The notes below the pieces were generated by a model. That model was not told where the DNA came from, did not search any database, and was given only the letters and a program-made list of their open reading frames with translations. From Candidatus Harrisonbacteria bacterium (GTDB lineage Bacteria; Patescibacteriota; Minisyncoccia; UBA6257; WO2-44-18), in NCBI GenBank assembly GCA_016182295.1, contig JACOXP010000008.1, positions 1 through 47,663 of the forward strand: a stretch of 47,663 bases of DNA, given 5' to 3'. Of the stretch, positions 3,501-44,437 are shown one piece after another (position 1 is the first letter of the stretch; each line of letters opens with the position of its first letter). A program made the translations under genes and the position numbers.

Positions 3501-3897
3501 AATCAAAAATCAAGAATTAAAAAAATCCGATAAAAGTTTGCTGGATATTTTAGCCGATGAAGTAAATGTAAAAACGGTATCTTTTGATGATAAAATCACC
3601 GCTGAAATCGAGCTCGATCTTAAAATCACTCCGGAGCTCAAAAATGAAGGCATTCTCCGCGACTTGATCCGGATGGTTCAGGGATTGCGGCACGACGCGG
3701 GTTATCAGCCGCATAACAAAATCGCTCTGATGGCGGAATTGCCAAGCGATATTTTCAAAGTAGCGCAGGCGAATCTTGCCGAATTTAAAAAAGCCGTGAA
3801 TGCCCAAGAGGTTGAATTTAAACGAGATAAATTCGACGCTGAAATTTCCACCAATCTTGATGGCCAGAAAATTTGGCTGGCGGTGCGAAAAGTTTAG
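505..3897 (+). CDS. ileS: Isoleucyl-tRNA synthetase (Thermus/archaeal-like type) carrying an internal histidine-phosphatase domain
   Basis: 1130 aa. Class I signatures PPTANGRPGIHH and KMSKSKGN; WDTHGLPVE; WCPRCQTPLS; DWSISRNRYWGTPLPIW; EGIDQTRGWFY. From memory it is colinear with Thermus IleRS except for the 1942-2544 insert. Confidence 0.95.
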   Translation: MLNLLKSFNLPQIEEKILKFWKEGRVFERIQELRKKSKKAKPFKFFEGPPTANGRPGIHHVLARSFKDVIPRYKTMRGFFVLRRAGWDTHGLPVELEVEKKLGIKTKQEIEKFGIVEFNTQAKMSVWAYKSDWEKLTERIGFWLDFNDPYITYNNPYIESLWWIFSEIERRGHLKKLHKIVPWCPRCQTPLSSHELGQPGAYRTTKDPSVYIKLKIKNSKTNDCLLIWTTTPWTLPGNVAVAVNPKLTYTKYKVGGEYLWSYNVPPKTEKGEPEVVEKLSGKKLAGLEYEPPYPNEGAHKVIEADFVSTEEGTGLVHIAPAYGEDDLRVAGHGPIPMSVDDRGIMKKSASWRIPGEGKFVKEADSDIIADLEKRKILHSSGLIEHEYPFCWRCSTPLLYFARKSWFIVMSKLRSEMLSANKKINWIPEHIKEGRFGEWLRDLKDWSISRNRYWGTPLPIWECEKDETHRLFIGSLEDLNKHAFNKNRFFIARHSEAEHNISGTLANGSESGNNASKLTEKGVKQAESMAKEFTKKKIDVIYHSPLARTKEVAQIIAKATGAETIADKRLTEVNGGSFNNRSVGEFGAFFKSKMERFSKTPPGGENYSDIKKRMLEAIRDINQKHNEKNILIVSHGDPLFVLEGAVQGLSNEKISEISSLPVAGWKEISSNNWPLNKDGELDLHRPFIDAVCLQCPDCEAKMNRVKDVADAWFDSGAMPFAQWHYPFENKQLIDKGEQFPADYITEGIDQTRGWFYTLLAVSILLKRGAPYKNVISLGLLLDKHGQKMSKSKGNIVDPWEMINKYGADVLRWYFFTINPPGEPKRFDENDLRKTVNKLFMIIYNSFVFYKTYGEGSSEPIPALDNWVLARLQETIAQVTEAMDKYEIGDAAKSIERLVDDFSRWYIRRSRKNVSGQTLNKVLSMLSKLIAPLTPFFADALWQSLGNRESVHSADWPEVEKKLFDKKLLGAMAEVRKLASLALAEREKAGIKVRQPLRELRIKNQELKKSDKSLLDILADEVNVKTVSFDDKITAEIELDLKITPELKNEGILRDLIRMVQGLRHDAGYQPHNKIALMAELPSDIFKVAQANLAEFKKAVNAQEVEFKRDKFDAEISTNLDGQKIWLAVRKV
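1942..2544 (+). other. In-frame histidine phosphatase (PGAM/His_Phos_1-like) domain inserted in IleRS
   Basis: Motifs RHSEAEHN, LTEKGVKQA, SPLARTKEVA, TEVNGGSF, PPGGENYSDI and IVSHGD lie between GSLEDLN and LDLHRPFIDA. Confidence 0.75.
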
Positions 3898-4318: not shown

Positions 4319-5303
4319 ATATTGCCAGGCCGATTTTCTCTTTCACCTCCGCTATTTTTTTTCCGGAGATTCTGGCGGCTTGCGCCGAACCGCGCTGGAG
4401 AATTTTTTTAATTTTAGCCGGTTTTTTTAATAATTCCATTTTCTTGCGGCGAAGCGGAGCGAAATGGCTCGCGACTAATTTAGCAAATGCCTTTTTAAAT
4501 TCGAAATAACCCCTGTTGCCGAATTGCCGCTCAATTTTTTCCATCGATTCGCCGGAAAGAGATTTATAAATCATCAGCATATTGGAAACAGCCGGTTTTT
4601 CTTTGGGATTGTACGCGATTTTACTTCCGGAATCGGTCACGGCGCCGCGGATTTTTTGATTGATTACCTCCGGAGAATCGTCAATAAAAAGACAGCCGGC
4701 CGATCGGGACTTGGACATTTTTTTAGTCGGATCATCCAAACTCATGATTCGGGGTGTTTCAGTCATCAATGCTTGCGGCTCCCTAAAAATAGATCCAAAT
4801 TTTTTATTGAATTTGCGCGCCAAAGTGCGAGCGAGTTCCAAGTGTTGAAGTTGGTCTTCTCCAACAGGTACCTGGTTGGCATCGTAGAGCAAGATATCGG
4901 CCGCCATCAATACGGGATAAGTAAACAACCCCACATTGGCCGACTCCTGGTGCGATCCGCTTTTTTCTTTAAACTGCGTCATCCGGCGAAGTTCGCCGAA
5001 GGGCGTAATAGAATTTAAGATCCAACTAAGCTCGGTGTGAGCCGACACTTGCGACTGAAGAAAAATCAGCGATTTTTTTGGATTTAATCCGGCGGCGATA
5101 TAATTCGCGGCCAGTTCAATAATCTGGTGAGGTTTTTCTTTGGGGACGAATTCTTCAGTCAGAGAATGAAGATCGGCAATGAAAAAATGGCAATTATATT
5201 TGCCCGAATTCTGCAGATCGACAAAATTTTTGAGAGCGCCGAGATAATTTCCCAAGTGAAGGCGTCCGGTTGGCTGGATTCCAGAAATAAGAACGGGCTT
5301 CAT
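4317..5303 (-). CDS. trpS: Tryptophanyl-tRNA synthetase
   Basis: 328 aa. SGIQPTGRLHLGNYLG (HIGH region), KMSKS, and the typical TrpRS length. Confidence 0.95.
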   Translation of the reverse strand: MKPVLISGIQPTGRLHLGNYLGALKNFVDLQNSGKYNCHFFIADLHSLTEEFVPKEKPHQIIELAANYIAAGLNPKKSLIFLQSQVSAHTELSWILNSITPFGELRRMTQFKEKSGSHQESANVGLFTYPVLMAADILLYDANQVPVGEDQLQHLELARTLARKFNKKFGSIFREPQALMTETPRIMSLDDPTKKMSKSRSAGCLFIDDSPEVINQKIRGAVTDSGSKIAYNPKEKPAVSNMLMIYKSLSGESMEKIERQFGNRGYFEFKKAFAKLVASHFAPLRRKKMELLKKPAKIKKILQRGSAQAARISGKKIAEVKEKIGLAI

Positions 5304-7018
5304 ACTTCAATTATAACCGGAATAATCATCGGCCGGCGCTGGGTTTTGGTGAAAAGAAGCTGGCCAAGCTGGTCGCGGAACAAAGTTTTGAGATAATCCG
5401 GCTCGATATCGCGATGGCCAGTAACTCGACCCAAAATAGCCCGAATTTTTTTGCGAACGTCATCAAGGAGTCCTTGATTTTCCTTAAGGTAAATGAAACC
5501 GCGGGAAATAATATCCGGATTTTTGAGAAGCCGGCGATTGTGGCGGTCAAGGGTCGTAATGACTACCACCATGCCCTCTTTCGCGAGCAGACGACGGTCG
5601 CGAAGCACAATTTCGCCTACGTCACCGACGCCAAGTCCGTCAACCATCACGTATGACGCGTCAACGGTTTTATCGGTTACTTGAAAAGTATCTTTCGTAA
5701 GTTCGCATACTTGGCCGTTATCCACCAAAATCGCGTTTTCTTTTGGAATACCGACTGATTGAGCGTGCTTGGCGGATGCCGCGCGGAAGAAATAATATCC
5801 GTGCACCGGCACGACGAATTTCGGCTTGGAAAGTTTTATCACCAATTTCAAATCTTCAGCCGGTCCGTGACCGCTGGCGTGGATATCCAGAAATCGGGAA
5901 TTGTAGACCTGATCAACTTGGCGAGCGATGTTATCTTGCAGGGTCTGGACGCTTCGTTCATTGCCCGGAACAACGGAGGAAGAAAAAATCACCATATCGC
6001 TTCTCTTCAAAGTAATATAGCGATGTTCGCCGTTGGCAATTCTGGTAAGGCCGGCGTTTGGTTCGCCTTGTCCGCCAGTGGTTAAAATCATAACTTTGTC
6101 GTCTTTGTGGCTGTTTACTTCTTCCAGTTGGATAAAAATATCCTTTTTGGTTTTGATGTAGCCCATATTCACCGCGATTTGGATATTGTCTTTCATAGTC
6201 CTGCCGTTGAGGGCGATTTTTCGTCCGAGGCGTTCGGCAATTTTAATAATTTCGGCAAGACGCGTTACCAGCGAGCCGAATGTCGCGACAATAATCCGAC
6301 CGTTCGCTTTTTGGAAAAGTTCCTCGAGATTTTTTTCGACAATCCTTTCGGAAGTGGCGTGGCCTTCTTCTTGGGCGTTAGTACTGTCCAAAAAAATCGA
6401 ATGGACCCCCATCTTGCCGATATGCTCAAAAATTTTTAAATGTTCTTTTTCCGGCTTTCCGTTTATGTCAGTTTCCAAACGGAAATCGCCAAAATGGACT
6501 AGTTTGCCGACTGGCGTGTCTAAAATTAATCCGATGGAATCGGGAATGGTGTGGCCGACATCGAAAAACTCGGCTTGAAAGTATTCGCCGATTCGCAATT
6601 TGTCGCCGTTTTTAACAACCTGGAATCTCGGTTTCGGCAGATTGCGGAATTCTTGGAATCGTTTTTCCACCAGCGCCCGCGTGAAAGCGGAGGTGTAAAT
6701 GATCGGATTGCCTATCTTTTCGATTATATAAGGAAGGGAGTGAATGTGATCGTAGTGACCGTGAGTGAGGATCAAGCCGCGGATGTTTTCTCTCTTTTTC
6801 TCTAAGCTCGAAACATTTGGGATAATGTAGTCAATGCCGGGAGTTTCCTCTTCCGGAAACTGGATGCCAACGTCAACCATCACAATCTCGTTGCCGTACT
6901 CAAAATAAGCGCAGTTGCGCCCGACTTCCTCAAGTCCGCCCAAAGGGACAAACTTAAGAACTTCTTTTTCGGAAGAAGCTTCTTTTACTTTTGGTTTGGG
7001 TTTAAGAACTCTAATCAT
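5300..7018 (-). CDS. rnj: Ribonuclease J (metallo-beta-lactamase / beta-CASP)
   Basis: 572 aa. LGGLEEVGRNC.., THGHYDHIH and the beta-CASP region. The stop region overlaps the trpS start by 4 nt. Confidence 0.9.
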   Translation of the reverse strand: MIRVLKPKPKVKEASSEKEVLKFVPLGGLEEVGRNCAYFEYGNEIVMVDVGIQFPEEETPGIDYIIPNVSSLEKKRENIRGLILTHGHYDHIHSLPYIIEKIGNPIIYTSAFTRALVEKRFQEFRNLPKPRFQVVKNGDKLRIGEYFQAEFFDVGHTIPDSIGLILDTPVGKLVHFGDFRLETDINGKPEKEHLKIFEHIGKMGVHSIFLDSTNAQEEGHATSERIVEKNLEELFQKANGRIIVATFGSLVTRLAEIIKIAERLGRKIALNGRTMKDNIQIAVNMGYIKTKKDIFIQLEEVNSHKDDKVMILTTGGQGEPNAGLTRIANGEHRYITLKRSDMVIFSSSVVPGNERSVQTLQDNIARQVDQVYNSRFLDIHASGHGPAEDLKLVIKLSKPKFVVPVHGYYFFRAASAKHAQSVGIPKENAILVDNGQVCELTKDTFQVTDKTVDASYVMVDGLGVGDVGEIVLRDRRLLAKEGMVVVITTLDRHNRRLLKNPDIISRGFIYLKENQGLLDDVRKKIRAILGRVTGHRDIEPDYLKTLFRDQLGQLLFTKTQRRPMIIPVIIEV

Positions 7019-7083
7019 TCAATTGTGTGGGCAGAGAGGGATTCGCCGCCCAAATTTTATTTGGGCGAGCCTCGCCCATCGAT

Positions 7084-7344
7084 TTAATCGATGGGCGGGA
7101 ACCCTTTTTGAAAATATTGTTTTAATTTTCTCCGACCGGCGCCACTTTTCCAATAAAGCTCTCGTTTTTTAGCCTCCTGCAGATTATCGTAGCATTCTGT
7201 AAAAAGAACTTTTAGTGGCCTTCTATGCTTTGTAGCCATAACGTTTCCAGAATTGTGCTCCTTCAACCTCGATCGCACGTCTTTTGTGTGACCGATATAC
7301 GTTTTCTTGTCCTTTAAACTCTGGAGAATGTATGTCCAAAACAT
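7084..7344 (-). CDS. GIY-YIG nuclease family protein (UPF0213-like)
   Basis: 86 aa. TYILQS..KTYIGHTKDVRSRLKEHNSG...KRELYWKSG. The ATG lies 6 nt downstream of the 3' end of tRNA-Leu. Confidence 0.8.
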   Translation of the reverse strand: MFWTYILQSLKDKKTYIGHTKDVRSRLKEHNSGNVMATKHRRPLKVLFTECYDNLQEAKKRELYWKSGAGRRKLKQYFQKGFPPID

Positions 7345-7350
7345 AGTTTG

Positions 7351-7434
7351 TGCCCCCCAGAGGATTTGAACCTCTACACCCTTGCGGGTACACGTACCTG
7401 AAACGTGTGCGTCTGCCGATTCCGCCAGGGGGGC
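7351..7434 (-). tRNA. tRNA-Leu (anticodon CAG), class II long variable arm, no encoded CCA
   Basis: Hand fold: GCCCCCC / GCGG-AATCGGCAG-ACGC / CACGT-TTCAGGT-ACGTG / long variable arm / AGAGG-TTCAAAT-CCTCT / GGGGGGC-A. Confidence 0.85.
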
Positions 7435-7539
7435 TCCACAAAGAAACTCAGATTGCCGATGCCCGCTAATTATTAACTTTATAAGAAATTCAACGTTGCT
7501 TTAATGATATATCCAAACTTATCAAAAGTCAAATTCCGG

Positions 7540-7611
7540 TGCCGGCGGCAAGAATTGAACTTGCGACCTTGGTCTTATGAAAACCCTGCTCTGCCACTGA
7601 GCTACGCCGGC
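7540..7611 (-). tRNA. tRNA with CAU anticodon, elongator type (Met; Ile2-lysidine cannot be excluded)
   Basis: Hand fold: GCCGGCG TA GCTC-AGTGGCA-GAGC A GGGTT-TTCATAA-GACCA AGGTC GCAAG-TTCAATT-CTTGC CGCCGGC A. The 1:72 pair is G:C. There is one G-A mismatch at 27:43. Confidence 0.75.
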
Positions 7612-7631
7612 GACTTTCCTTCGAAAGCATG

Positions 7632-7704
7632 TTGCGGGGACAGGATTTGCACATGTGACCTCCAGGTTATGGGCCTGGCGAGCTAACTACTGCTCTACCC
7701 CGCT
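7632..7704 (-). tRNA. Initiator-like tRNA (CAU) with atypical loops
   Basis: Hand fold: A-GCGGGG TA GAGC-AGTAGTTA-GCTC G CCAGG-CCCATAA-CCTGG AGGTC ACATG-TGCAAAT-CCTGT CCCCGC-A A. Initiator marks present: a 1:72 mismatch (A x A) and A11:U24. Odd features: C33, no GG in the D-loop, G at T-loop position 55, and one T-stem mismatch. Confidence 0.6.
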
Positions 7705-22606: not shown

Positions 22607-23257
22607 ATGAGTGAAAACCTCGAGCGATTTTTCACCGATTATCTCCAACGTTCGATAATTAAACTAGATAAAGAAATTGGCCGCTTGGAATCCCTGAGGG
22701 ACAAAGGTTCGATATATGACCCGGAGGACCTGAAGCTTTTACTGACGAAAGTAATTCGAGAAGATGAACTACGCCCGATAGAAGAACAAGTTATTTTCTT
22801 GAAAGGCGCAATCCAGGATAAAGCCCGCCTCCTAAAACTTTGGCCTTTTTTCATTAAACAAGCTGTCGTTTGGAATCCCGAGATTGAGCTTGATCTCAGA
22901 ATTGAAAATATGGATATACCGGTTGGGGAATTTCTTGATTTGATCAATTCTCATGACCCGCATATGAATATGATTATTTATCTTACCGAAGAGATAATTA
23001 ACATAGGTTATGACATTCTTGAAGAGCTTAATGAAAACACGATACAAGGCGTTAAAGAAAAGATGTCGGTTGTTCAAAGGGCCTTCACCATTGTCAAAAA
23101 CAGCCGATCCTTTTACGCGGTGTCTACGATTAATGACTTACTGGCTCAAACAATAGAGAAACTGGAAAATGACTACATTCAATTGCGTTACCACTATTCA
23201 ATACGAATGGACTCTATTGATGCGGAGAACGATATGTTACAATGTAAGGGTGATTAA
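22607..23257 (+). CDS. Hypothetical protein (acidic, predicted helical)
   Basis: 216 aa, AT-rich. AAAGGTGAAT lies upstream of the ATG. No recognisable motif. Confidence 0.5.
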   Translation: MSENLERFFTDYLQRSIIKLDKEIGRLESLRDKGSIYDPEDLKLLLTKVIREDELRPIEEQVIFLKGAIQDKARLLKLWPFFIKQAVVWNPEIELDLRIENMDIPVGEFLDLINSHDPHMNMIIYLTEEIINIGYDILEELNENTIQGVKEKMSVVQRAFTIVKNSRSFYAVSTINDLLAQTIEKLENDYIQLRYHYSIRMDSIDAENDMLQCKGD

Positions 23258-23362
23258 ATCTAAGGTTACAACAACAACAATCTTTGTGTGCCCAGCGCGC
23301 TGAGGTTGTGGTTCTCGATTTCCAAGCTAACAAACCCCGACCATCAGCGTCGGGGCTTTTTT
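23220..23362 (+). promoter_or_regulatory. Candidate thr-operon leader: Thr-codon-rich short ORF plus a terminator abutting thrA
   Basis: The short ORF (ATG 23220 or GTG 23250, to TGA 23303) ends ..KVTTTTIFVCPAR, with ACA x4 at 23268-23279 followed by ATC. GGTTGTGGTT (23304-23313) can pair either with the ACA run or with AACCCCGACC (23333-23342), which is the 5' half of the terminator CCCCGAC-N7-GTCGGGG + T6 (23335-23362). The thrA ATG is at 23363. Confidence 0.4.
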
Positions 23363-25672
23363 ATGAAAAAATTTATCAAAATATTGAAATTCGGAGGTTC
23401 GTCGGTCGGTTCGGCTGGACGGATTAAAAACGTTTGCGGAATCATTCGTGATTCTGCCTTGAGTTTGCCGAAAGGCAACCGAATAACCATTGTTGTTTCC
23501 GCCATGCAAGGCATAACGGATAAATTACTGGCATTGGACTTTGATTTTGTAAAAGAAAAACATATTACGGTTGCCAAAGAATTGCGTGTACTGCCGCCAA
23601 CCAATCTACTAGATGAATTGGAAAACGTGATAAAAGCCGCAAAAATTCTAAACAATGTCTCGCCGATAATTTTAGATTTAGTAACCAGTTTCGGCGAACG
23701 GCTTTCGGCCCAGCTTGTTGCCGACTATTTGAATAAAAAAATTCCGGCTATCGCGGTTGACGCTCGGGGATTAATAAAAACTAATGATGATTTTCAAAAC
23801 GCTGCCGTTGATTTTAAAAAAACTAATCTTTGTATAAAAAAGTTTTTTAAGAAGTTGCGGGGAATTCCGGTTGTAACTGGATTTGTCGGTTCAACCGATC
23901 GCGGTCAGACCACCACTCTCGGTCGTGGCGGCTCGGATTACAGCGCTTCCATTTTCGGCGCGGCGCTTGGAGTTAAAGTTATTGAAATTTGGACAGATGC
24001 CAACGGCATTATGACTGCCGATCCGCGAGTAATCGCCGAAGCTTTTACTCTGCCGGAGATTAGTTATGAAGAAGCGTTTGAAATGGCCTACTTCGGCGCC
24101 AAAATCATTCATCCGGCGACTATGTTGCCCGCGATCAAAAGCAGAATCCCAATACTGATTAAAAACACCTTTAACTCGAATCATAACGGCACTTTAATTT
24201 TAAAAAGCCCGAAAAAGAGCGATTGGGGCCTCAAGAACATAACCACCATAGGCAAAATAGCCCTAATCGAGGTTGGCGGAGCTAACTTGGCGGGTCATCC
24301 TGGTGTAGCCGAACGGGTTTTCGGAGCTGTTGCCAAAGGGAAAATCAATGTAATTTTAATTGCCCAGGCCTCCTCTGAACGCGCCATTTGCTTCGCTGTA
24401 AACAGAGACGATACGGAAAAAGCCATTGCCGCGATCGGAAAAGATTTCGTTTCGGAAATCAGCCGGAAAGAAGTGTTTGTGAAAAAATCTGATGGTAAAA
24501 GCGTTATTGCCGTTGTTGGCGATAACATGCGCGGTGTTCCCGGCGTTGCCGGAAGAATTTTTAAAGCTTTGGGTGATAACAATATCAATATCGCCGCGAT
24601 CGCCCAGGGGGGATCGGAACGAAATATTTCTTGTGTTGTCGCGGAAAAAGACAAAACGGCGGCCGTCGCGGCTATTCACAGAGAATTTTTCCAAAAAGAT
24701 CCAGCAATTTTCATCGTGGGAACCGGCAATGTTGGCGGAGAACTAATCCGTCAACTTACCGGCAACCAACTTAAAATTTGCGGGATTGCTAACAGCGAAA
24801 AGATGGTTTTTGATCACAAGGGCATTAATTCCAGTAATTGGAAAAAGGCCTTGCGGCAATCCCAGGATCCGATGAACATCGAAAAATTTCTTGAAAAAGC
24901 GAAATTAGTTTCCGAAAAAAGAATTTTTGTTGATTGCACCGCCAGCGATTCGGTAGCCAGAAGATATGCCGATATCGTTAAATCGGGGTTTCACATCGTT
25001 ACCCCCAATAAAAAAGCCAATGTCTTGCCGATGAAAAATTATTTTAGTCTTCGAAAAGCTCTTGCTGATTGCGCCAAACATTTTTATTACGACGCTAATG
25101 TCGGAGCCGGACTACCTATTATCGAAAGTATTAAAAAAATGATGGCGGCTGGAGATGAAATTAATAAAATTGAAGGCATTTTTTCCGGCACTTTGAGTTA
25201 CCTTTTCAATAATTACAATGGTCGGCAAAAATTTAGCGAGTTGGCGCAGAAAGCCAAAGTGTTGGGGTATACCGAACCGGATCCCCGAGAAGATTTGAGC
25301 GGAAAGGACGTGGGCCGGAAACTGCTGATTCTATCAAGGGAAATCGGCCTACCAGCCGAATCACGCGAAGTTGTTTTGGAAAATTTAGTAAAACCAGACG
25401 CTTATTTCGAATCCCGTTTTCAAAAAGCGAAACGGGCGGGAAAAGTTTTGCGTTACGTCGGATCGATACAAAACGGCAAAATATCGGCGTCGCTCCGAGA
25501 ACTCCCGGCAGACCATCCGTTGGCCAATGTTTCCGGCACGGACAATATTATTGCCATCTGGAGCCGTTACTACAAAACCCCCCTGGTCATAAAAGGCGCC
25601 GGCGCCGGTCGGGAAGTCACCGCCGCGGCGGTATTAAGCGGAATTTTAAAAATAATTCAACAACATGGATAA
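23363..25672 (+). CDS. thrA: Bifunctional aspartokinase / homoserine dehydrogenase
   Basis: 769 aa from ATG 23363; the track ORF extends through the terminator. KFGGSSVG, GRGGSDYSA, ACT region, then GTGNVGG...NKKA...EGIFSGTLSY...EPDPREDLSG. Confidence 0.9.
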   Translation: MKKFIKILKFGGSSVGSAGRIKNVCGIIRDSALSLPKGNRITIVVSAMQGITDKLLALDFDFVKEKHITVAKELRVLPPTNLLDELENVIKAAKILNNVSPIILDLVTSFGERLSAQLVADYLNKKIPAIAVDARGLIKTNDDFQNAAVDFKKTNLCIKKFFKKLRGIPVVTGFVGSTDRGQTTTLGRGGSDYSASIFGAALGVKVIEIWTDANGIMTADPRVIAEAFTLPEISYEEAFEMAYFGAKIIHPATMLPAIKSRIPILIKNTFNSNHNGTLILKSPKKSDWGLKNITTIGKIALIEVGGANLAGHPGVAERVFGAVAKGKINVILIAQASSERAICFAVNRDDTEKAIAAIGKDFVSEISRKEVFVKKSDGKSVIAVVGDNMRGVPGVAGRIFKALGDNNINIAAIAQGGSERNISCVVAEKDKTAAVAAIHREFFQKDPAIFIVGTGNVGGELIRQLTGNQLKICGIANSEKMVFDHKGINSSNWKKALRQSQDPMNIEKFLEKAKLVSEKRIFVDCTASDSVARRYADIVKSGFHIVTPNKKANVLPMKNYFSLRKALADCAKHFYYDANVGAGLPIIESIKKMMAAGDEINKIEGIFSGTLSYLFNNYNGRQKFSELAQKAKVLGYTEPDPREDLSGKDVGRKLLILSREIGLPAESREVVLENLVKPDAYFESRFQKAKRAGKVLRYVGSIQNGKISASLRELPADHPLANVSGTDNIIAIWSRYYKTPLVIKGAGAGREVTAAAVLSGILKIIQQHG

Positions 25673-26672
25673 AAAAATAAAAGTCGGAATTCTCGGAGCG
25701 ACCGGAATGGTTGGGCAAAAATTCATTACTCTCTTGCAAAGCCATCCATGGTTTGAAATTGCGGTGTTAGCCGCTTCCTCGCGATCGGCCGGTAAACTCT
25801 ACAAAGGAACGAAAATTCTATCAGTAGAAGAAAATTTAGAAGAAATTGCCGAAAAAGTTGATTTGGTTTTTTCCGCCATAGACGCGGAAAAGGAATGGGT
25901 TAAAAAAATTGAAGAAAAATACGCCACCGCCGGTGTGGCGGTGGTTTCCAACAATTCCGCTCATCGCTGGACGAAAGACGTGCCGATGATCATGCCGGAA
26001 ATCAACGCGCATCATTTATCTTTGATTGATGAACAAAGAAAAAGTCGTAGCTGGGCAACCGGTCTCATAATCGTTAAACCAAATTGTTCTTTGCAGTCGT
26101 ATCTTCCTGTTGTTCACGCGCTTCGCGAGTTTGAGCCGAAATTTGTTTCGGTCACTACTCTTCAAGCGATTTCCGGAGCGGGAAAAACTTTTGATTCCTG
26201 GCCGGAGATGATTGATAACTGCATACCCTTCATCGGCGGCGAAGAAGAAAAAACTGAAAAAGAACCGCAAAAGATTTTAGGATCGGCTTGCCCCATAATA
26301 TCGGCTACCTGTATCAGGGTGTCGGTTTCAGACGGACATATGGCGAGTGTTGCTATACAATTCGGTAAAAAGCCCAATATTAAGGCAATTTATGAGGCAA
26401 TTGATAACTTCCAAAATCCGTTAAAAGAATTGGGGCTTCCATCCGCTCCGGAAAAATTCATAAAATATTTTGTCGAAAATGACCGTCCGCAAACCAAGCT
26501 GGACAGAAACTACGCGAACGGTATGGGAATTACTTGCGGCAGATTTCGGGAAACGGCGAACGGCGAATGGCGCTTCGTAGCCCTTTCCCATAACACGGTC
26601 CGCGGCGCCGCCGGCGGCAGCATTCTCAATGCCGAACTTCTTTATAAAAAAGGTTTTTTGAAACATCGATGA
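25665..26672 (+). CDS. asd: Aspartate-semialdehyde dehydrogenase
   Basis: 335 aa. VGILGATGMVGQKF, active-site NCS, SGAG, HNTVRGAAGG. Overlaps thrA by 8 nt. Confidence 0.9.
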   Translation: MDKKIKVGILGATGMVGQKFITLLQSHPWFEIAVLAASSRSAGKLYKGTKILSVEENLEEIAEKVDLVFSAIDAEKEWVKKIEEKYATAGVAVVSNNSAHRWTKDVPMIMPEINAHHLSLIDEQRKSRSWATGLIIVKPNCSLQSYLPVVHALREFEPKFVSVTTLQAISGAGKTFDSWPEMIDNCIPFIGGEEEKTEKEPQKILGSACPIISATCIRVSVSDGHMASVAIQFGKKPNIKAIYEAIDNFQNPLKELGLPSAPEKFIKYFVENDRPQTKLDRNYANGMGITCGRFRETANGEWRFVALSHNTVRGAAGGSILNAELLYKKGFLKHR

Positions 26673-27175
26673 AGGGAATCACTTTAATTGGAATGCCAGG
26701 CGTCGGAAAATCAACAATAGGAAAACTGTTGGCGGAGAAATTAAATTATAAATTTATTGATCTTGATGTTTTAATAAAAGAAAAAACTGGAAAAAGTCAC
26801 GCCGATATCATCAAGGAAAGGGGCGAACGAGAGCTCATTAAATTTGAAGGCGAACTTGCTTGCGGTCTTGATTTAACGGAAACGGTTTTTGCTCCCGGCG
26901 GTAGCATTATCTATTTTTATCCAGCAATGGAAAAACTGGAAAAAGAGACCGCTATTATTTATTTAAGTTTGCCGCTTTCGGAAATTGGGAAACGGCTGGC
27001 CGGCAGATTGGAAACTCGAGGAATTGTCGGTCTTACCCGTTGGGGAATCGAAGGGGTTTTTGTTTCCCGCAGCCCGCTCTATCAACTTTTCGCGCGCCAT
27101 GTTGTAGAATGCCAGGGATTAGATGAAGAAAAGATAGCCGACCGCATTTATGCTTTATTACAGCACCAACCATAA
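26669..27175 (+). CDS. P-loop kinase of the shikimate kinase (AroK/AroL) family, sitting in the position expected for homoserine kinase
   Basis: 168 aa. GMPGVGKSTIGKLLA Walker A, FIDLD, APGGSII, SRSPLY. ATGA overlap with asd and a 26-nt overlap with thrC. Confidence 0.7.
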   Translation: MKGITLIGMPGVGKSTIGKLLAEKLNYKFIDLDVLIKEKTGKSHADIIKERGERELIKFEGELACGLDLTETVFAPGGSIIYFYPAMEKLEKETAIIYLSLPLSEIGKRLAGRLETRGIVGLTRWGIEGVFVSRSPLYQLFARHVVECQGLDEEKIADRIYALLQHQP

Positions 27176-28388
27176 TTCAGATCGAGTGGATTTTAAGACG
27201 GCGCTTTTGCGCGGCTTGGCGCCCGATGGCGGACTTTATATGCCGGAATCGTTTCCGGAGCTTAGGAAAACAAAAGGCGCGAGTCAAAATTTTAGCGAAA
27301 CCCTAGCGCCATTCTTAGATATTCCAAAAACGGAAATCGCCAGAATCGTTGATGAATCCTTCGTTTTCCCGGTGCCTTCAAAAAAACTTTTCGGAGAGAT
27401 ATCAATTTTGGAGCTTTTCCACGGACCAACGCTCTCTTTTAAAGATTTCGGCGCGCGTTTTATGGCGCGAGCAATGAACTATTACTTGCAACGTAAAAAT
27501 GAGCAATTAACCATTATCGTCGCTACTTCTGGAGATACCGGCAGCGCTGTTGCTAGCGGGTTTTACGGTCTTTCCAATATCAGGGTTGTTGTTTTATATC
27601 CATCGAAACGAATTAGCGAATTGCAAGAAAAACAAATATCCACTTTCGGCGGAAATATTGCCGCGGTGGAAGTGGCGGGGGATTTTGACGATTGCCAAAG
27701 ATTAGCCAAGCAAGCGCTTTCCGATGAAAATTTGCGCGAAGAGATAAATTTATCTTCCGCTAATTCCATAAACATCGGACGCTTATTGCCGCAGATGTTT
27801 TATTATTTCAAAGGTTTTCAATCCGGAGCGAGTTTCGTTGTTCCTTCGGGAAATTTCGGTAATCTTACCGCCGGGCTTTTTGCTAAAAAAATCGGACTAC
27901 CGGTCAAGAAATTCATCGCCGCGATAAATGAAAATAGCGTCATTCCAGAATTTTTAGCGACGGGGAAATTAATCGAAAGAAAAACCAGAATGACAATATC
28001 GAACGCGATGGATGTCGGCAAGCCAAGCAATTGGGCGCGCATTACCGATCTTTATCAAGGCGACCGCTTGGCGATGAAAAAAGATCTGGAAGCGATTGCC
28101 ATCAGTGAAGCCGAAACCAAGAAAACTATCAGCGAGGTTTATAAAAATTACGGATATGTCGTCGATCCCCACACTGCCGTCGGCGTCGCCGCCGCTTTTC
28201 GGCAGCCGCCGGGAGAACCGAAAATTGTCTTGGCGACAGCCCATCCCGCGAAGTTTCCGAAAATCGTGGAATCCGCTATCGGCGAAAAAGTGAATATTCC
28301 GAACGCGCTTAACGAGGTCCTAAATAAGGAGAAGCGCAGCGTATTGATAAAGCCGGACTACCCCGCCCTTAAAGAGCTGCTTGCCTAA
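27150..28388 (+). CDS. thrC: Threonine synthase
   Basis: 412 aa. N-terminus LLRGLAPDGGLYMP, PLP-lysine motif PTLSFKDFG, SGDTGSA. Confidence 0.9.
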   Translation: MLYYSTNHNSDRVDFKTALLRGLAPDGGLYMPESFPELRKTKGASQNFSETLAPFLDIPKTEIARIVDESFVFPVPSKKLFGEISILELFHGPTLSFKDFGARFMARAMNYYLQRKNEQLTIIVATSGDTGSAVASGFYGLSNIRVVVLYPSKRISELQEKQISTFGGNIAAVEVAGDFDDCQRLAKQALSDENLREEINLSSANSINIGRLLPQMFYYFKGFQSGASFVVPSGNFGNLTAGLFAKKIGLPVKKFIAAINENSVIPEFLATGKLIERKTRMTISNAMDVGKPSNWARITDLYQGDRLAMKKDLEAIAISEAETKKTISEVYKNYGYVVDPHTAVGVAAAFRQPPGEPKIVLATAHPAKFPKIVESAIGEKVNIPNALNEVLNKEKRSVLIKPDYPALKELLA

Positions 28389-28447
28389 CTTTGTCGGAAG
28401 CTTTAGTATTGCTTCCAGACCTTTGTATAATTAAAGGAGAATCTATT

Positions 28448-29101
28448 ATGGCCGCCACGAAAAAAAGAAAAGGTTTGTTTTTGGTGTTTGAGGGCTGTGA
28501 GGGAGTCGGCAAGACCACCCAAGCTAAGCTTTTACGTGATTGGCTTACAAGCAACGGTTATAAATCAGTTCTTACAAAAGAGCCGGGCGGCGATGAGGGA
28601 ATTTGCAGCGATATCAGAAAAATTTTGTTGAATGAAAAGTACGGAAAAAGCATGGATTATGTTGCCGAGTTTTTGCTTTTTGAATCAGACAGAGCCCAGC
28701 ATGTCGGCAAAATTATCAAACCAGCTTTGGAAATGGGTCACACAGTTATCAGCGACCGATACAGCGCCGGCACTTTCGCTTATCAATGCGTTGCCAGAAA
28801 AGTTTGTGATATTCCGGAATTTCGAACGATTGATAATTTCGCGACTCGCAAGCTAGAACCCAGTCATATTTTTTGGATGGATCTCGATCCGGCCATAGGT
28901 TTGAAACGTAACGTGGCCATAGGAAAACGAGATCGATTCGAAAAAGAAAAACTGTCTTTTCATCAGGCGGTTCGCCGGGGATACGAAGAATATTTTGAAT
29001 ACGTTGCCCCTCGCAATCGCTGGACAAAACTTGACGCTAGCCTGCCGATTGATGAAATTCATTGGAAAATACGTGAAATACTGGAAAAGCGGTTCCTCTA
29101 G
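28448..29101 (+). CDS. tmk: Thymidylate kinase
   Basis: 217 aa from ATG 28448, with AAAGGAG 8 nt upstream. FLVFEGCEGVGKTTQ, DR(Y/F) region SDRYSAGTFAYQ. Confidence 0.9.
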   Translation: MAATKKRKGLFLVFEGCEGVGKTTQAKLLRDWLTSNGYKSVLTKEPGGDEGICSDIRKILLNEKYGKSMDYVAEFLLFESDRAQHVGKIIKPALEMGHTVISDRYSAGTFAYQCVARKVCDIPEFRTIDNFATRKLEPSHIFWMDLDPAIGLKRNVAIGKRDRFEKEKLSFHQAVRRGYEEYFEYVAPRNRWTKLDASLPIDEIHWKIREILEKRFL

Positions 29102-33856: not shown

Positions 33857-33928
33857 CGGCCTGTAGCTCAGTGGTAGAGCAGTGATCTTATAAGTCACGG
33901 GTCGCAGGTTCGATCCCTGCCAGGCCGA
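33857..33928 (+). tRNA. tRNA-Ile with a genomically encoded UAU anticodon
   Basis: Hand fold: CGGCCTG TA GCTC-AGTGGTA-GAGC A GTGAT-CTTATAA-GTCAC GGGTC GCAGG-TTCGATC-CCTGC CAGGCCG A. The anticodon loop CTTATAA gives TAT at positions 34-36. Confidence 0.8.
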
Positions 33929-33995
33929 CACTTGACAAAAGCCTTTTTATATGGTAACTTAACAATCAGAACACCTTTTATTTGAAGGAGGGTTT

Positions 33996-38815: not shown

Positions 38816-40255
38816 ATGCTTAAGTTCTTAATCCCAATCGTTATCGGCGCGGTTGTTCTGGTAGGTGGATATTTTCTAATAAATCAGCTTAGACAATACC
38901 AACTTCCGAAAGGGGATACCAAGCGATTGGCCCCTGATTTTACTTTGCGGGATTTCGACGGCAAAGACGTTTCATTAGCCGATTTTCGCGGGCGGCCAAT
39001 AATGATCGATTTTTGGGCGGCTTGGTGCGTTTTTTGCGAAACTGAATTTCCGGAAATTCAAAAAGCTTACGAAAGTTATAAAGACCGCGGTTTAATAGTA
39101 ATCGGTATTCATAGAACAGAAACCGAAAATCCGGATATAGGCTTGCGGTTTGCCGAAAGATTAGGTATTAAATTCGTTTTATTGAAAGACGAAACCGGCG
39201 AAATTTATCAAAAATATGGGCAAGGCGTGCAAGCTATGCCAATGTCCTTTTTTGTCGATAAAGACAACATAATTCAAGAAACTATTTTCGGCCCGAAGGA
39301 TCGCGAAAAGATCATCGCCGGTCTTAAAAAAATTATTGTTGACTATCCCGTCACAACAGGAGAGGGGGATGAGGAACCGGTAATAAGTGAAAGAGAAATT
39401 TTTGTTACGGATGGGTCCAAGCACTCCATACCGCTTGAAGAAATTCTTTCCGGCGGTCCACCAAAAGACGGCATTCCCTCTATTGATAAGCCCAAATTCG
39501 TTTCCGTAAAAGAAGCGAGTGATTTTTTGAAAGAGGATCGTCTGGGCCTGGCCGTCAATTACAAAGGAATTAATAGGTTTTACCCTTATCAAATTTTGGT
39601 TTGGCACGAAATTGTAAATGATATTATTGCCGGTGATCCAATTTTAGCAACCTATTGCCCGCTTTGCGGCACGGGTATTGTTTTTTCTAGAGAAATTAAC
39701 GGTGAGGCGGTGGAATTCGGAGTTTCCGGTCTTTTGCACAATAACAATCTTTTGATGTATGACCGGAAAACGGATAGCTTATGGAGCCAAGTTTTAGGGG
39801 AGGCGGTCGTTGGAGAATTAACCGGTCGCAAACTTCAGATTATTCCAAGCGCCAATGTTTTATGGAGCGATTGGAAGAAACAAAATCCTGGCGGAGAAGT
39901 TTTGTCGCGGGATACTGGATTTATTCGTGATTATGATTACGATCCTTACGGCGGTTATTATTCTGACAGAAGCATTTATTTCCCGGTTGATGTCGAAGAC
40001 GACCGACTCCATCCAAAGACTATAGTGATAGGAATTATAGTAAACAAAATAGCCAAAGCTTATCCAAGCAAAGAAGTAATTAATGAAAAAGTTGTGAACG
40101 ATAAAATTGGCGGGATTGATATAAAAATCGAATTTAACGAAACAACAAAAGAAATTTTAGTAAAAGATATTAATGGAAGGTCGATAGATAAAATCGAGGC
40201 CTTTTGGTTTTCTTGGGTGAACGCTTACCCCGATACGCTTTTATGGAAACCTTAA
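38816..40255 (+). CDS. Membrane-anchored TlpA/ResA-like thioredoxin fused to a DUF3179 domain
   Basis: 479 aa. TM helix, then DFWAAWCVFCETEFPE (CxxC), then DGIPSIDKPKF...YPYQILVWHEIVND...ATYCPLCGTG...SLWSQVLGEAV, as I remember the DUF3179 signature. Confidence 0.7.
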   Translation: MLKFLIPIVIGAVVLVGGYFLINQLRQYQLPKGDTKRLAPDFTLRDFDGKDVSLADFRGRPIMIDFWAAWCVFCETEFPEIQKAYESYKDRGLIVIGIHRTETENPDIGLRFAERLGIKFVLLKDETGEIYQKYGQGVQAMPMSFFVDKDNIIQETIFGPKDREKIIAGLKKIIVDYPVTTGEGDEEPVISEREIFVTDGSKHSIPLEEILSGGPPKDGIPSIDKPKFVSVKEASDFLKEDRLGLAVNYKGINRFYPYQILVWHEIVNDIIAGDPILATYCPLCGTGIVFSREINGEAVEFGVSGLLHNNNLLMYDRKTDSLWSQVLGEAVVGELTGRKLQIIPSANVLWSDWKKQNPGGEVLSRDTGFIRDYDYDPYGGYYSDRSIYFPVDVEDDRLHPKTIVIGIIVNKIAKAYPSKEVINEKVVNDKIGGIDIKIEFNETTKEILVKDINGRSIDKIEAFWFSWVNAYPDTLLWKP

Positions 40256-42092: not shown

Positions 42093-42249
42093 GTGTGGAT
42101 AACTTGAGTTGCGCGACGGCGTTACCGTGTTATCATCACTATTAGTAAATTCAAAACTAAATATCGAGTTCTCGCATATCGCGAGAAAATAATGCGGACG
42201 AAATGTTCGCAAATGTAAGTCTGTTCCAGTTCTTTCCTTCAACATTTAA

Positions 42250-42279
42250 GGGCGACCCCAGGTCGCCCTTTTTCTTTTG
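42250..42279 (+). terminator. Rho-independent terminator 26 nt upstream of valS
   Basis: GGGCGACC-CCA-GGTCGCCC followed by TTTTTCTTTTG. Confidence 0.75.
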
Positions 42280-42304
42280 TCTAAAAATTTATAGAATAAG
42301 TGAG

Positions 42305-44437
42305 ATGAAAGAGCTTCCATCCGCTTACGATCCGAAATCCACCGAAAGCCGAATTTATGAGCTTTGGGAGAAATCGGGATATTTTAACCCTAATAATTTA
42401 AAAAAAACCAAGAAGCCGTTTTCCATTCAGTTGCCGCCGCCCAATGTGACCGGATCGCTTCACATGGGTCACGCCTTAAACGCTACCATCAGCGATATTT
42501 TAATTCGTTGGCACCGAGCGCGAGGATATAAAGCCGTCTGGTTTCCCGGCACTGATCATGCCGGTATCGCCACCCAGAACGTTGTTGAGAAACAACTTAA
42601 GAAGGAAGGCAAAAGTCGTTTTGACCTTGGTAGAGAAAAGTTTATTGAGCGTGTTTGGGAATGGAAAAATCAGTACGGCAACATCATTATCGACCAGCTT
42701 AAAAAACTAGGCGCTTCCTGCGATTGGTCGCGGTTGCGTTTCACCATGGACCCGCAATACGCTGAATGGGTTAAGAGAGCGTTTAGTCATTACTACGAAA
42801 AAGGATTGATTTACCGCGGCAAACGGGTGATCAGCTGGTGCGTTAGATGCCAGACCTCGCTTTCGGATTTGGAAATTGAATACCAACCAGAGAAGGCCAA
42901 GCTCTACTATATAAAGTACCCCGTTGGCGATTCCTACATAACGGTAGCAACTACCAGACCGGAGACAATGCTTGGCGATGCCGCGGTGGCCGTTAACCCA
43001 GAAGACAAACGTTATAAAAATTTCATCGGCAAAAAAGCAACGTTGCCGATTCAGAATCGGGAAATTCCGATTGTCGCCGACGAAGCGGTGGAAATGGAAT
43101 TTGGCACCGGCGCTGTCAAAGTGACGCCGGCTCATGATATGCTGGACGCCGAAATTGGCGAGCGTCACAAACTTCCCCAACGTCAAGTAATAAATGAACG
43201 TGGGAAAATGACCGCCGAGGCCGGAAAAGAATTCGCGGGTTTGAAAGTTTTGGAAGCTCGCGAAAAAGTAATCGAAAAATTAAAAGCCCTCGGCCTGATT
43301 GAAAAAACGGAAGAACTCGATCACAACTTGGCTGTTTGCTATCGCTGCGGCGGCACGATCGAGCCGCTTTTGAGCGATCAATGGTTTTTGAAAATGGGCG
43401 AGCTTGCCAAAAAAACTCTCAAAGCGGTAAAATCTGGAAAAACCAAAATAATTCCCAAGAATTTTGAAAAATTATTATTTCAATGGCTTAATCCGTCAAC
43501 CGGCGAGATAAAAGATTGGTGCATTTCTCGCCAGATTTGGTGGGGACATCGTTTGCCGGTTTGGTTCCATGAACCGAAATGCGTTCCTAAAAAAGGACAT
43601 GAGGGAGACGTCGTTAAGTGCAAAGATATGGTAGTGGCCGCCGAAGCTTCCGTTTGCGAACACTGCGACGCCAAATTTATTCAATCTGAAGATGTTTTGG
43701 ATACCTGGTTTTCTTCGGCGTTGTGGCCCTTCGCCGGTCTTTCTGAAAAAGACCAAAAAGATTTTTATCCTTCAAATGTTTTGATTACCGCCCGTGACAT
43801 TATCAATTTATGGGTGGCGAGGATGATTTTTTCCGGATTGGAATTTAAAGGGAAAGTTCCGTTTCCGGAAGCGCTGATTCACGCGACTATTTTAACCAAA
43901 GAAGGAAAAAGAATGTCTAAGAGCTTAGGAACGGGGATTGACCCGTTGATGCTTATAGACAAGTACGGCGCTGACGCCACCCGTTTCGGCATTGTCTGGC
44001 AGGCGATGGGCAATCAAGATATTCACTGGGATGAGACCGCCGCGCAGGCCGGAAAGAAGTTCGCCAACAAATTATGGAATATAGCCAGATTTATCCAGGG
44101 ACGGACGGAGATTTTTGATAAGACCCCCGAAACAAAAAACCTCGAAGATTTAAATATCTTAAAAAAGCTGAAAGCGCTTCAAAAATCCACGGATAAAAAA
44201 ATTCAGAATTACGAATTCGGGCAAGCGTTGCACGAGATTTATGACTTTGTCTGGCATGACTTGGCCGATAAATACATCGAACACGCCAAATCCCGCGAAG
44301 ATGAAAATGCTAAAATTACTTTAGGGTTCATATTGGGCGAAACGCTGAAACTGCTTCACCCATTTATGCCATTTGTCACCGAAGAGCTTTGGCAGCAAAT
44401 CATTGGCAAAAATTTGCTCTTGGTGAACGGCGAATAA
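42305..44437 (+). CDS. valS: Valyl-tRNA synthetase, short form without the C-terminal coiled-coil
   Basis: 710 aa from ATG 42305. PPPNVTGSLHMGHAL, editing-domain TTRPETMLGD and GTGAVKVTPAHD, KMSKSLGT. It ends soon after the anticodon-binding helices. Confidence 0.9.
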   Translation: MKELPSAYDPKSTESRIYELWEKSGYFNPNNLKKTKKPFSIQLPPPNVTGSLHMGHALNATISDILIRWHRARGYKAVWFPGTDHAGIATQNVVEKQLKKEGKSRFDLGREKFIERVWEWKNQYGNIIIDQLKKLGASCDWSRLRFTMDPQYAEWVKRAFSHYYEKGLIYRGKRVISWCVRCQTSLSDLEIEYQPEKAKLYYIKYPVGDSYITVATTRPETMLGDAAVAVNPEDKRYKNFIGKKATLPIQNREIPIVADEAVEMEFGTGAVKVTPAHDMLDAEIGERHKLPQRQVINERGKMTAEAGKEFAGLKVLEAREKVIEKLKALGLIEKTEELDHNLAVCYRCGGTIEPLLSDQWFLKMGELAKKTLKAVKSGKTKIIPKNFEKLLFQWLNPSTGEIKDWCISRQIWWGHRLPVWFHEPKCVPKKGHEGDVVKCKDMVVAAEASVCEHCDAKFIQSEDVLDTWFSSALWPFAGLSEKDQKDFYPSNVLITARDIINLWVARMIFSGLEFKGKVPFPEALIHATILTKEGKRMSKSLGTGIDPLMLIDKYGADATRFGIVWQAMGNQDIHWDETAAQAGKKFANKLWNIARFIQGRTEIFDKTPETKNLEDLNILKKLKALQKSTDKKIQNYEFGQALHEIYDFVWHDLADKYIEHAKSREDENAKITLGFILGETLKLLHPFMPFVTEELWQQIIGKNLLLVNGE

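Follow-up and report, generated by a model that had tools for sequence, protein, structure and literature searches.

The window analysed here is a stretch of 47,663 nucleotides of DNA from Candidatus Harrisonbacteria (contig JACOXP010000008.1, assembly GCA_016182295.1), a groundwater bacterium of the candidate phyla radiation (CPR). It contains a gene for a small P-loop kinase of 168 amino acids (aa) with the fold of the shikimate kinases (SKs), embedded in a cluster of threonine biosynthesis genes. We propose that this gene (26669–27175) encodes the homoserine kinase, an ATP:L-homoserine O-phosphotransferase, of a complete, attenuator-controlled aspartate-to-threonine operon, and judging from the sequence evidence we put the probability of this assignment at about 0.8. 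An earlier note on this DNA had already suggested a non-orthologous homoserine kinase; the suggestion is now supported by the match to the family model NF040667, by the gene context, by the active-site residues and by a threonine leader in front of the operon. Coordinates of window features refer to the + strand unless stated otherwise.

According to the list of open reading frames (ORFs) and the raw sequence, four ORFs on the same strand overlap in series, namely thrA, asd, the kinase gene and thrC. The thrA gene (23363–25672) encodes a fused aspartate kinase (AK) and homoserine dehydrogenase (HSDH); it was identified by NF006959 (AK-HSDH I, 843.4 bits, cut-off 726) and by the Pfam domains AA_kinase, two ACT, NAD_binding_3 and Homoserine_dh. 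Its overlap with asd comprises 8 nt, ATGGATAA at 25665–25672, and holds the ATG of asd and the TAA of thrA. The asd gene (25665–26672) encodes an aspartate-semialdehyde dehydrogenase (ASD) of the asd_EA type (NF006416, 414.7 bits, cut-off 232; TIGR00978, 319.9 bits, cut-off 301.2) and overlaps the kinase gene in the sequence ATGA at 26669–26672, which consists of the kinase ATG and the asd TGA. The kinase gene in turn shares 26 nt (27150–27175) with thrC (27150–28388), the gene for a threonine synthase that is of the long E. coli type and contains the domains Thr_synth_N and THR4_C (TIGR00260, 295.6 bits, cut-off 167; 333 bits in a tblastn search with E. coli ThrC). The chain of overlaps described in the earlier note is therefore found in the sequence at all three junctions.

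Two of the gene starts deserve comment. The true start of thrA is probably ATG 23363 and not the mechanically assigned GTG 23288, because the alignment to the family models begins only at about residue 31 of the mechanical ORF, five residues beyond Met26, and because a terminator sits within the GTG extension; GTG 23288 was rejected on these grounds. For thrC the assigned start is backed in two ways: the Thr_synth_N match begins at residue 3, and the N-terminus runs collinear with that of E. coli ThrC. Downstream of thrC, a dTMP kinase gene (28391–29101) begins after a gap of 2 nt if the mechanical TTG 28391 is taken as its start. The dTMP kinase model aligns only from residue 27, and the in-frame ATG 28448 is the probable real start. 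This gene may be co-transcribed with the thr operon.

AK, ASD, HSDH and ThrC are thus all encoded, each scoring above a curated equivalog or subfamily cut-off. ThrC consumes O-phospho-L-homoserine, and the sole step from aspartate to threonine without a canonical gene in the window is the homoserine kinase. Neither a tblastn search with E. coli ThrB (E ≤ 1e-5) nor Pfam scans of the 35 ORFs revealed a GHMP kinase in the window, as had been claimed before. We favour a homoserine kinase because the four partner enzymes are present, only this step is missing, and no GHMP kinase is found in the window. The claim that no other gene of the aromatic pathway is present was likewise borne out: tblastn with E. 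coli AroA, AroB, AroC, AroE, AroK and AroL and the Pfam scans of the 35 ORFs yielded the SK-like gene itself as the sole match.

We regard the kinase ORF as a real gene because a protein search returned 765 homologues (E ≤ 1e-5) and because its AlphaFold (AF2) model is confident, with a mean predicted accuracy (pLDDT) of 95.3. The description of the protein as AroK-like was confirmed by a match to the Pfam family SKI (PF01202; 92.8 bits, cut-off 22.1) and by the presence of the motifs GMPGVGKST, DLD and SRSPLY. It has to be considered, then, whether the protein could be a genuine shikimate kinase (AroK/AroL) whose position in the thr operon is incidental. A SKI score above the gathering threshold agrees with this, as does a fold that is indistinguishable from that of SK structures (TM score up to 0.87 to the M. 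tuberculosis enzyme, MtSK, and other SK structures), and the homologues that bear a name are mostly called 'shikimate kinase' at NCBI and at JGI. The curated models, however, disagree. The best SK model, AroL NF002988, gives 75.4 bits against a cut-off of 161, and the kinase reaches the cut-off of none of the curated SK models. Its top NCBIfam match is instead NF040667, 'homoserine kinase' (hom_kin_desulfo), with 120.6 bits and an E-value of 5.9e-35 over positions 2–162 of 163. The same model is matched by all 35 members of the clade, the best E-value being 1.8e-42 versus 4.1e-26 for any SK model. That NF040667 and not a SK model is the closest curated match is the second reason why we prefer a homoserine kinase.

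The active-site residues were mapped by a HMMER alignment to MtSK and by an alignment of 116 sequences, comprising 36 sequences of the CPR clade and 76 non-CPR sequences (together 112, in the following the GGS subfamily) as well as four canonical SKs. The window kinase contains the motifs GMPGVGKST (aa 8–16), DLD (31–33), ELIKFEGE (55–62), PGGS (76–79) and SRSPLY (133–138). The machinery for phosphoryl transfer appears to be retained, namely Lys14 of the Walker A motif, D31 and D33, Arg117 of the LID loop and one carboxylate-binding Arg (R134). Within the Walker A motif or P-loop (G8-MPGVGKS-T16; 26690–26716) M9, P10, G13, K14 and S15 are invariant in 35 sequences, and the Lys is present in 112/112 sequences of the GGS subfamily. 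In shikimate kinases D34 of MtSK, which is D33 in HpSK, is the Asp that touches the hydroxyl group to be phosphorylated. The equivalent residue of the window kinase, D33 (26765–26767), is Asp in 111/112 sequences (36/36 in the CPR clade; 75 Asp and one Glu outside it), and the HpSK mutants D33A and D33E are inactive (PMC3306394). R117 of the LID loop T-R-G-I-V-G (27017–27019; R117 in MtSK, R116 in HpSK) was found in 29/36 CPR and 76/76 non-CPR sequences. R134 of S-R-S-P-L-Y (27068–27070), corresponding to the carboxylate-binding Arg R136 of MtSK and R132 of HpSK, is an Arg in 112/112 sequences. Homoserine, too, bears a carboxylate. Taken by itself, the retention of the equivalents of D34, R117 and R136 would also suit a genuine SK.

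The part of the pocket that holds the substrate appears remodelled, with Ile in place of the second carboxylate-binding Arg (I57), an aliphatic residue instead of the aromatic platform (I48) and GGS instead of GGG. I57 (26837–26839) occupies the position of the shikimate-carboxylate Arg R58 of MtSK (R57 of HpSK), so that the Arg of the E-F-R-x-x-E helix is indeed absent from the segment ELIKFEGE, and the equivalent Arg was found in 0/36 CPR sequences. The loop G77-G78-S79 (26897–26905) corresponds to the GGG loop G79–G81 of MtSK; as the earlier note had stated, it reads GGS, and the third residue is Ser in 112/112 sequences of the subfamily and Gly in the four canonical SKs. At the position of F49 of MtSK, where the window kinase has I48, the CPR clade carries an aliphatic residue or Ala and the non-CPR GGS sequences an aliphatic residue. 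Among SKs, G79–G81 and the shikimate-binding Arg are reported to be strictly conserved, and in HpSK the mutant F48A is inactive (PMC3306394). The window kinase lacks both R58 and the third Gly, and the R57A and R57K mutants of HpSK are essentially dead, with 2% activity left and no detectable binding of shikimate (Cheng et al., PMC3306394), which argues against a genuine SK. Because residues essential in SKs are changed throughout the CPR clade, a homoserine kinase is again the better explanation. The region gripping the ring and the carboxylate of shikimate would have been rebuilt for a smaller, linear hydroxy-amino acid; the kinase would phosphorylate the gamma-hydroxyl of L-homoserine and not the 3-OH of shikimate, and the resulting O-phosphohomoserine would pass to ThrC, the product of the overlapping gene.

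Further observations speak against a genuine SK. No aro genes were found around the CPR relatives (within 8–10 kb on either side), nor does the window contain any. A genuine SK would leave it unexplained why the gene is conserved in its place between asd and thrC and linked to them by translational overlaps, and the leader ahead of the operon codes for Thr and not for aromatic residues (see below). Moreover, the synthesis of aromatic amino acids is, to our knowledge, generally missing from CPR genomes. In sum we consider it very improbable that the gene encodes a shikimate kinase.

A SK-like enzyme acting as homoserine kinase is an idea that has already been published, for Desulfovibrio in 2018. 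In D. vulgaris Miyazaki F, mutants in thrC, hom and DvMF_0971 were rescued by threonine (Price et al. 2018, PMC5764234). DvMF_0971 is annotated as shikimate kinase, is 27% identical to E. coli SK II, and complements an E. coli thrB– strain; the organism encodes a separate, essential and true shikimate kinase in addition (PMC5764234). This precedent is a further reason for assigning a homoserine kinase here. Like DvMF_0971, the window kinase is a SK-fold protein of about 165 aa that would replace the GHMP-type ThrB under the name of a shikimate kinase, and the model representing DvMF_0971, NF040667, through which alone the two were compared, is its best curated match over the full length. There are also differences. 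The window kinase stays below the cut-off of that model (120.6 versus 197 bits) and forms part of a CPR clade of its own, whose identity to the other sampled members of the subfamily is about 38%. Its gene lies in a translationally coupled thr operon, whereas the Desulfovibrio gene, going by its locus tag, is remote from hom and thrC; and the role of the Desulfovibrio enzyme was shown genetically, while that of the window kinase is inferred from sequence. Our literature search found nothing relevant on a CPR homoserine kinase, on CPR threonine synthesis or on the shikimate pathway in Patescibacteria. What is new are the CPR clade, its setting in a thr operon, the Thr leader and the extent to which such proteins are probably mis-annotated.

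Compared with the canonical AroK/AroL (EC 2.7.1.71; MtSK 1WE2/2IYQ, HpSK), the window kinase shares the fold, the P-loop, the DxD motif, the LID Arg and the R136 equivalent, and differs in R58 to Ile, GGG to GGS, F49 to Ile and the lack of aro neighbours. With the GHMP-type ThrB (E. coli b0003) it would share the reaction and an operon position immediately ahead of thrC, the one that thrB has in E. coli thrLABC, whereas fold and sequence are unrelated and neither tblastn nor Pfam showed any similarity. Another protein proposed to replace ThrB belongs to TIGR02535, which we take to be a cofactor-independent, metalloenzyme-type mutase family and which is a different protein family from that of the window kinase. 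Pfam and NCBIfam scans of the ORFs found no TIGR02535-type gene in the window. This phosphoglycerate-mutase-like replacement was proposed in Bacteroides (BT2402) and failed to complement thrB (GapMind, PMC7311316).

The gene neighbourhood was compared in 15 distinct CPR genomes, the window included, and loci with an orphan kinase gene were viewed to 8–10 kb around it. The kinase gene lies within a thr cluster in 11/15 of these genomes, in three arrangements (fused thrA, split hom and ask, or additional genes inserted). Eight CPR genomes show the order fused thrA, asd, kinase, thrC, some with an inserted gene, such as DUF559 (L113), a GT87 glycosyltransferase (L109) or a small MarR/HTH-family gene (L114). 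Locus L003 (Uhrbacteria) carries split hom and ask genes followed by the kinase gene and thrC, and in L046 the contig stops right after the kinase gene. Overlaps of 1–26 nt between the kinase gene and thrC are recurrent among the CPR clusters. No GHMP kinase was detected in the CPR loci examined by tblastn or, for the loci from contig look-ups, in the precomputed Pfam results. Across clusters of differing arrangement the kinase gene is thus found directly upstream of thrC, which is the thrB position, and because this position is kept in three cluster arrangements in CPR we regard the context as evidence for a homoserine kinase. The window and related CPR genomes furthermore have the backbone nusA-PPase-tig-clpP-tyrS-thr in common. 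As for the earlier note, the full aspartate-to-threonine branch that it described is present; the remark that it is unexpected in a CPR genome has to be toned down, since the same cluster occurs in at least 10 other CPR genomes.

The operon also appears to be equipped with its own control element. The spacer ahead of thrA is 105 nt long and contains a small ORF, a hairpin and a terminator-like hairpin. The candidate leader peptide ORF (23250–23303) starts with GTG 23250, reads M-I-K-S-K-V-T-T-T-T-I-F-V-C-P-A-R-stop and ends with TGA 23301–23303; with the alternative in-frame start ATG 23220 the leader would be longer, giving a range of 17–27 aa. A scan for codon runs identified the four consecutive in-frame ACA (Thr) codons at 23268–23279, the proposed regulatory codons. 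Only two in-frame runs of at least four ACN codons exist in the whole window on both strands. In dinucleotide shuffles of the 200 nt upstream of thrA the observed run was reached in 5 of 2000 cases, and in each of six loci tested in at most 5/2000.

The leader RNA from 23258 to 23370 (113 nt; the spacer and the first bases of thrA) folds with a minimum free energy of –32.7 kcal/mol (z = –2.65 versus shuffles). The predicted hairpin 1:2 (23273–23313) has its 5' arm over the Thr codons and its 3' arm across the leader stop codon. It is followed by the terminator-like hairpin CCCCGACC..GUCGGGG (23335–23355) with a C and six U's (23335–23362 in total), which ends one base before the thrA AUG and has a stem dG of –12.3.

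A leader ORF with a Thr run and a terminator precedes thrA in 8/8 fused-thrA loci examined, the window and seven others, with Thr runs of 4–10 codons. The leader regions are situated at 23220–23362 in the window, at 6382–6507 in L001, 3901–4074 in L107, 4345–4501 in L109, 4198–4345 in L111, 3672–3821 in L113, 3350–3512 in L114 and 4311–4467 in L115. The leader peptides of the seven other loci read MKIIATTTTAAVSSIFAGVF (L001), ..IITTTTTRFPAGEF (L107), MRFSLTTTTATTTTQSVVGEF (L109), MNKVIFTTTTTTTSLQPRS (L111), ..NTNTATTTTTM (L113), MERFATATTTTTTRTYR (L114) and MRFSTTTTTTTTTTQNDLRGC (L115). In these seven loci a GC hairpin with a U-run is located 7–47 nt ahead of thrA; in all eight loci the run consists of four to seven U's and starts directly after the hairpin or within two bases of it.

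The probability of terminator formation was calculated from equilibrium partition functions with the RNA beneath the ribosome masked. For the window it amounts to 0.86 in the free RNA, to at most 0.02 with the ribosome stalled on the first or middle Thr codon, and to 0.95 with the ribosome at the leader stop codon. The corresponding values are 0.00, 0.00 and 0.99 for L109, 0.88, 0.03–0.04 and 0.95 for L111, and 0.00, 0.00 and 0.98 for L114, so that a clear switch is predicted in the window and in these three loci. Stalling of the ribosome at the Thr codons would favour the antiterminator, and the operon, in the order leader, thrA, asd, kinase, thrC, would form a self-contained threonine route under ribosome-mediated attenuation.

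We read the leader as a thrL-type attenuator, analogous and not homologous to the enterobacterial one. As in E. coli thrL, a short ORF rich in Thr codons and then a rho-independent terminator are found upstream of thrA, and alternative pairings dependent on the ribosome position are predicted in the CPR leader. There is no similarity to E. coli thrL in sequence or by covariance model; moreover, the window leader contains a run of Thr codons alone and none of Ile codons, and its terminator abuts the thrA AUG. No Rfam family, including Thr_leader (presumably RF00506), matched the leader at the gathering threshold or at E ≤ 10, and a literature search found no report of leader-peptide attenuation in CPR/Patescibacteria. 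A search of sequencing runs found the locus in four groundwater DNA metagenome runs and in no RNA run. The leader is independent evidence that the operon makes threonine; it ties the operon, and with it the kinase, to the supply of threonine, and we assign a homoserine kinase also because the operon carries this predicted Thr-codon leader attenuator.

Several observations weigh against this assignment. First, the 120.6 bits of the window kinase are below the NF040667 cut-off of 197; this is an 'exception'-type and hence narrow model, and going by the score we class the kinase as a relative of the NF040667 family and not as a curated member. Second, 8/76 non-CPR members of the subfamily keep the R58-equivalent Arg, so that its loss is no subfamily-wide rule and may therefore not determine specificity. 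Third, linkage to thr genes is incomplete. Locus L007 (Paceibacter MAG) has thrA and asd and no thrC downstream of the kinase gene; about 2.8 kb of unrelated ORFs (4845–7675) split asd from the kinase gene, whose start is overlapped by 4 nt by a 352-aa ORF. In 4/15 CPR relatives the kinase gene (L108 8001–8504, L110 8001–8504, L005 10001–10537, L112 8001–8522) has no thr gene within 8–10 kb. In L108 and L110 it directly follows tyrS within the tig-clpP-tyrS backbone of the window, the picture to be expected if thrA, asd and thrC had disappeared or moved and only the kinase gene had remained. These orphan copies are the chief observation that misfits a strictly threonine-dedicated role. Outside CPR, tblastn of the loci of about 75 subfamily members found none linked to thr genes. 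The expectation that relatives are thr-linked, which the earlier note had put forward as a check, thus holds for 11/15 CPR genomes and fails for the remaining four and for the non-CPR members. Finally, the predicted leader switch, which is based on equilibrium folding only, is partial in L107, L113 and L115 and absent in L001.

The non-CPR loci gave one weak HSDH match at +8.5 kb and, among aro genes, two weak AroA-like matches (probably MurA) and one AroB. As there are no thr neighbours, function cannot be transferred from context outside CPR. Their commonest neighbours, read by eye from the sequences of loci L008–L086 and not by Pfam, are RidA-like (14/78), MurA-like (12/78) and flavin-reductase-like (10/78) genes. 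The RidA/YjgF-like gene stands directly upstream on the same strand with a median gap of –26 nt in its 14 loci, which are mostly from Lachnospiraceae; in the same set of loci the MurA-like gene follows the kinase gene and the flavin-reductase-like gene precedes it.

From these findings one could suppose a SK-fold kinase whose substrate is a different small metabolite or hydroxy-acid, or a promiscuous enzyme with a threonine-independent role, homoserine being phosphorylated elsewhere or as a side activity. The orphan copies, two of them in the same tyrS-adjacent slot, the absence of an adjacent thrC in L007, the unlinked non-CPR members with their RidA-, MurA- and flavin-reductase-like neighbours, and the missed NF040667 cut-off would all be accommodated. 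Yet the window offers no other candidate for the missing step, and the coupling to thrC is conserved with its overlaps of 1–26 nt. R134 and D33 are kept, which suits a substrate that has a hydroxyl group and a single carboxylate, and the genomes with orphan copies may have their thr genes elsewhere. The missing linkage outside CPR is uninformative because the validated Desulfovibrio gene, judged by its locus tag, is not thr-linked either (PMC5764234). We therefore regard a different substrate as unlikely and retain the homoserine kinase.

CPR bacteria are thought to be dependent on hosts for many metabolites, and in line with this the gene might be a decaying or non-functional remnant, with threonine or O-phosphohomoserine obtained from the host. 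The ORF is intact, however, and 35 relatives of about 50% identity all share the P-loop, DLD, PGGS and R134 without change. Confidence in the structure model is high, each of the four partner enzymes is intact and exceeds a curated cut-off, and the regulatory leader is maintained in eight loci. A remnant is hardly conceivable in view of this conservation.

A genome scan found relatives of the kinase in at least 535 sequence stretches of GTDB species-representative genomes. The best 80 of these are mostly non-CPR, at 37–45% identity, and include Lachnospiraceae, Oscillospiraceae, Ruminococcus, Roseburia, Treponema, Planctomycetota, Desulfobulbaceae, Myxococcota and two archaeal MAGs (metagenome-assembled genomes); GMPGxGKST and the GGS loop are present in every one of the 80. 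Ten diverse non-CPR relatives scored 157–183 bits with NF040667 and about 100 with SK models, and are thus also below the cut-off of 197. A second protein search, with the Planctomycetota relative nearest to that cut-off as query, returned at least 7,878 protein clusters (E ≤ 1e-10) around this GGS member. The 120 listed matches are all close kin (71–99% identity) and planctomycetal where a taxon is given; among them none is named 'homoserine kinase', and every name given is 'shikimate kinase'. A metagenome scan with the single protein yielded 13 weak or partial matches to over-specific patterns and no usable CPR contexts.

Placement within the AroK family, a check proposed in the earlier note, was carried out with a rough neighbour-joining (NJ) tree with 40 bootstraps, in which E. 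coli AroK, E. coli AroL, MtSK and Erwinia SK served as outgroup and DvMF_0971 was not included. The CPR kinases are monophyletic in 40/40 bootstraps, and the GGS subfamily is separated from the four canonical SKs in 36/40. Mean identity is 52% within CPR, 38% between CPR and non-CPR GGS sequences and 28% between CPR and canonical SKs (range 20–38% for the four). The closest homologues with a taxon name are all Patescibacteria/CPR (Harrisonbacteria, Paceibacteria, Uhrbacteria). On these comparisons the window kinase is a divergent, CPR-specific branch of a GGS subfamily that, as judged by sequence, spans Clostridia, Planctomycetota, Spirochaetes, Desulfobacterota-type lineages, CPR and some archaea. 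We advance only tentatively, at slightly less than even odds, the joint proposal that the whole GGS subfamily consists of pan-prokaryotic homoserine kinases mis-annotated as SKs and that CPR bacteria control threonine synthesis by Thr-leader attenuation.

Apart from the thr cluster and six tRNAs, the window is a compact housekeeping stretch according to Pfam and NCBIfam matches of its 35 ORFs, with ileS, trpS, RNase J, tpiA, rmuC, nusA, H+-PPase, tig, clpP and tyrS, then the thr cluster, followed by tmk, ftsH, recG, tsaD, valS and hsp20. The isoleucyl-tRNA synthetase (IleRS; 505–3897; TIGR00392, 854 bits) is one continuous ORF of 1130 aa and contains a histidine-phosphatase or dPGM-like domain that spans about 170 aa (Pfam His_Phos_1, aa 489–657) and is inserted after the N-terminal half of the catalytic core, ahead of the remainder. 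This domain was considered as a phosphoglycerate-mutase-like substitute for ThrB and rejected, TIGR02535 being a different family. The valyl-tRNA synthetase (42203–44437) comprises only 744 aa. Bacteria usually decode AUA with a modified CAU tRNA, and a tRNA-Ile with the anticodon UAU is uncommon; such a gene is located at 33857–33929, just past ftsH, and two adjacent tRNA genes with the anticodon CAU are found at 7538–7704 on the – strand. A 479-aa ORF (38816–40255) joins an AhpC/TSA peroxiredoxin-like domain (aa 38–155) to DUF3179 (aa 217–474) and adjoins a gene for a DsbD-type membrane protein.

If the GGS subfamily does consist of homoserine kinases, part of the 'missing ThrB' gaps in prototrophs could be explained, and the CPR operons would be the first operon-level evidence. 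Should the assignment made here be right, hundreds of CPR proteins, and possibly thousands in other phyla, would be mis-annotated as shikimate kinase, and metabolic reconstructions would wrongly score such genomes as threonine auxotrophs lacking a homoserine kinase and with a stray step of the aromatic pathway. The GGS loop, the missing R58 Arg and aromatic platform, and the retained D34 and R136 offer a hypothesis of how a SK scaffold could be retuned from shikimate to homoserine. The Thr leader would extend the classic proteobacterial mechanism to ultra-small genomes, and a groundwater CPR lineage that is usually called amino-acid dependent would keep a complete and regulated route from aspartate to threonine.

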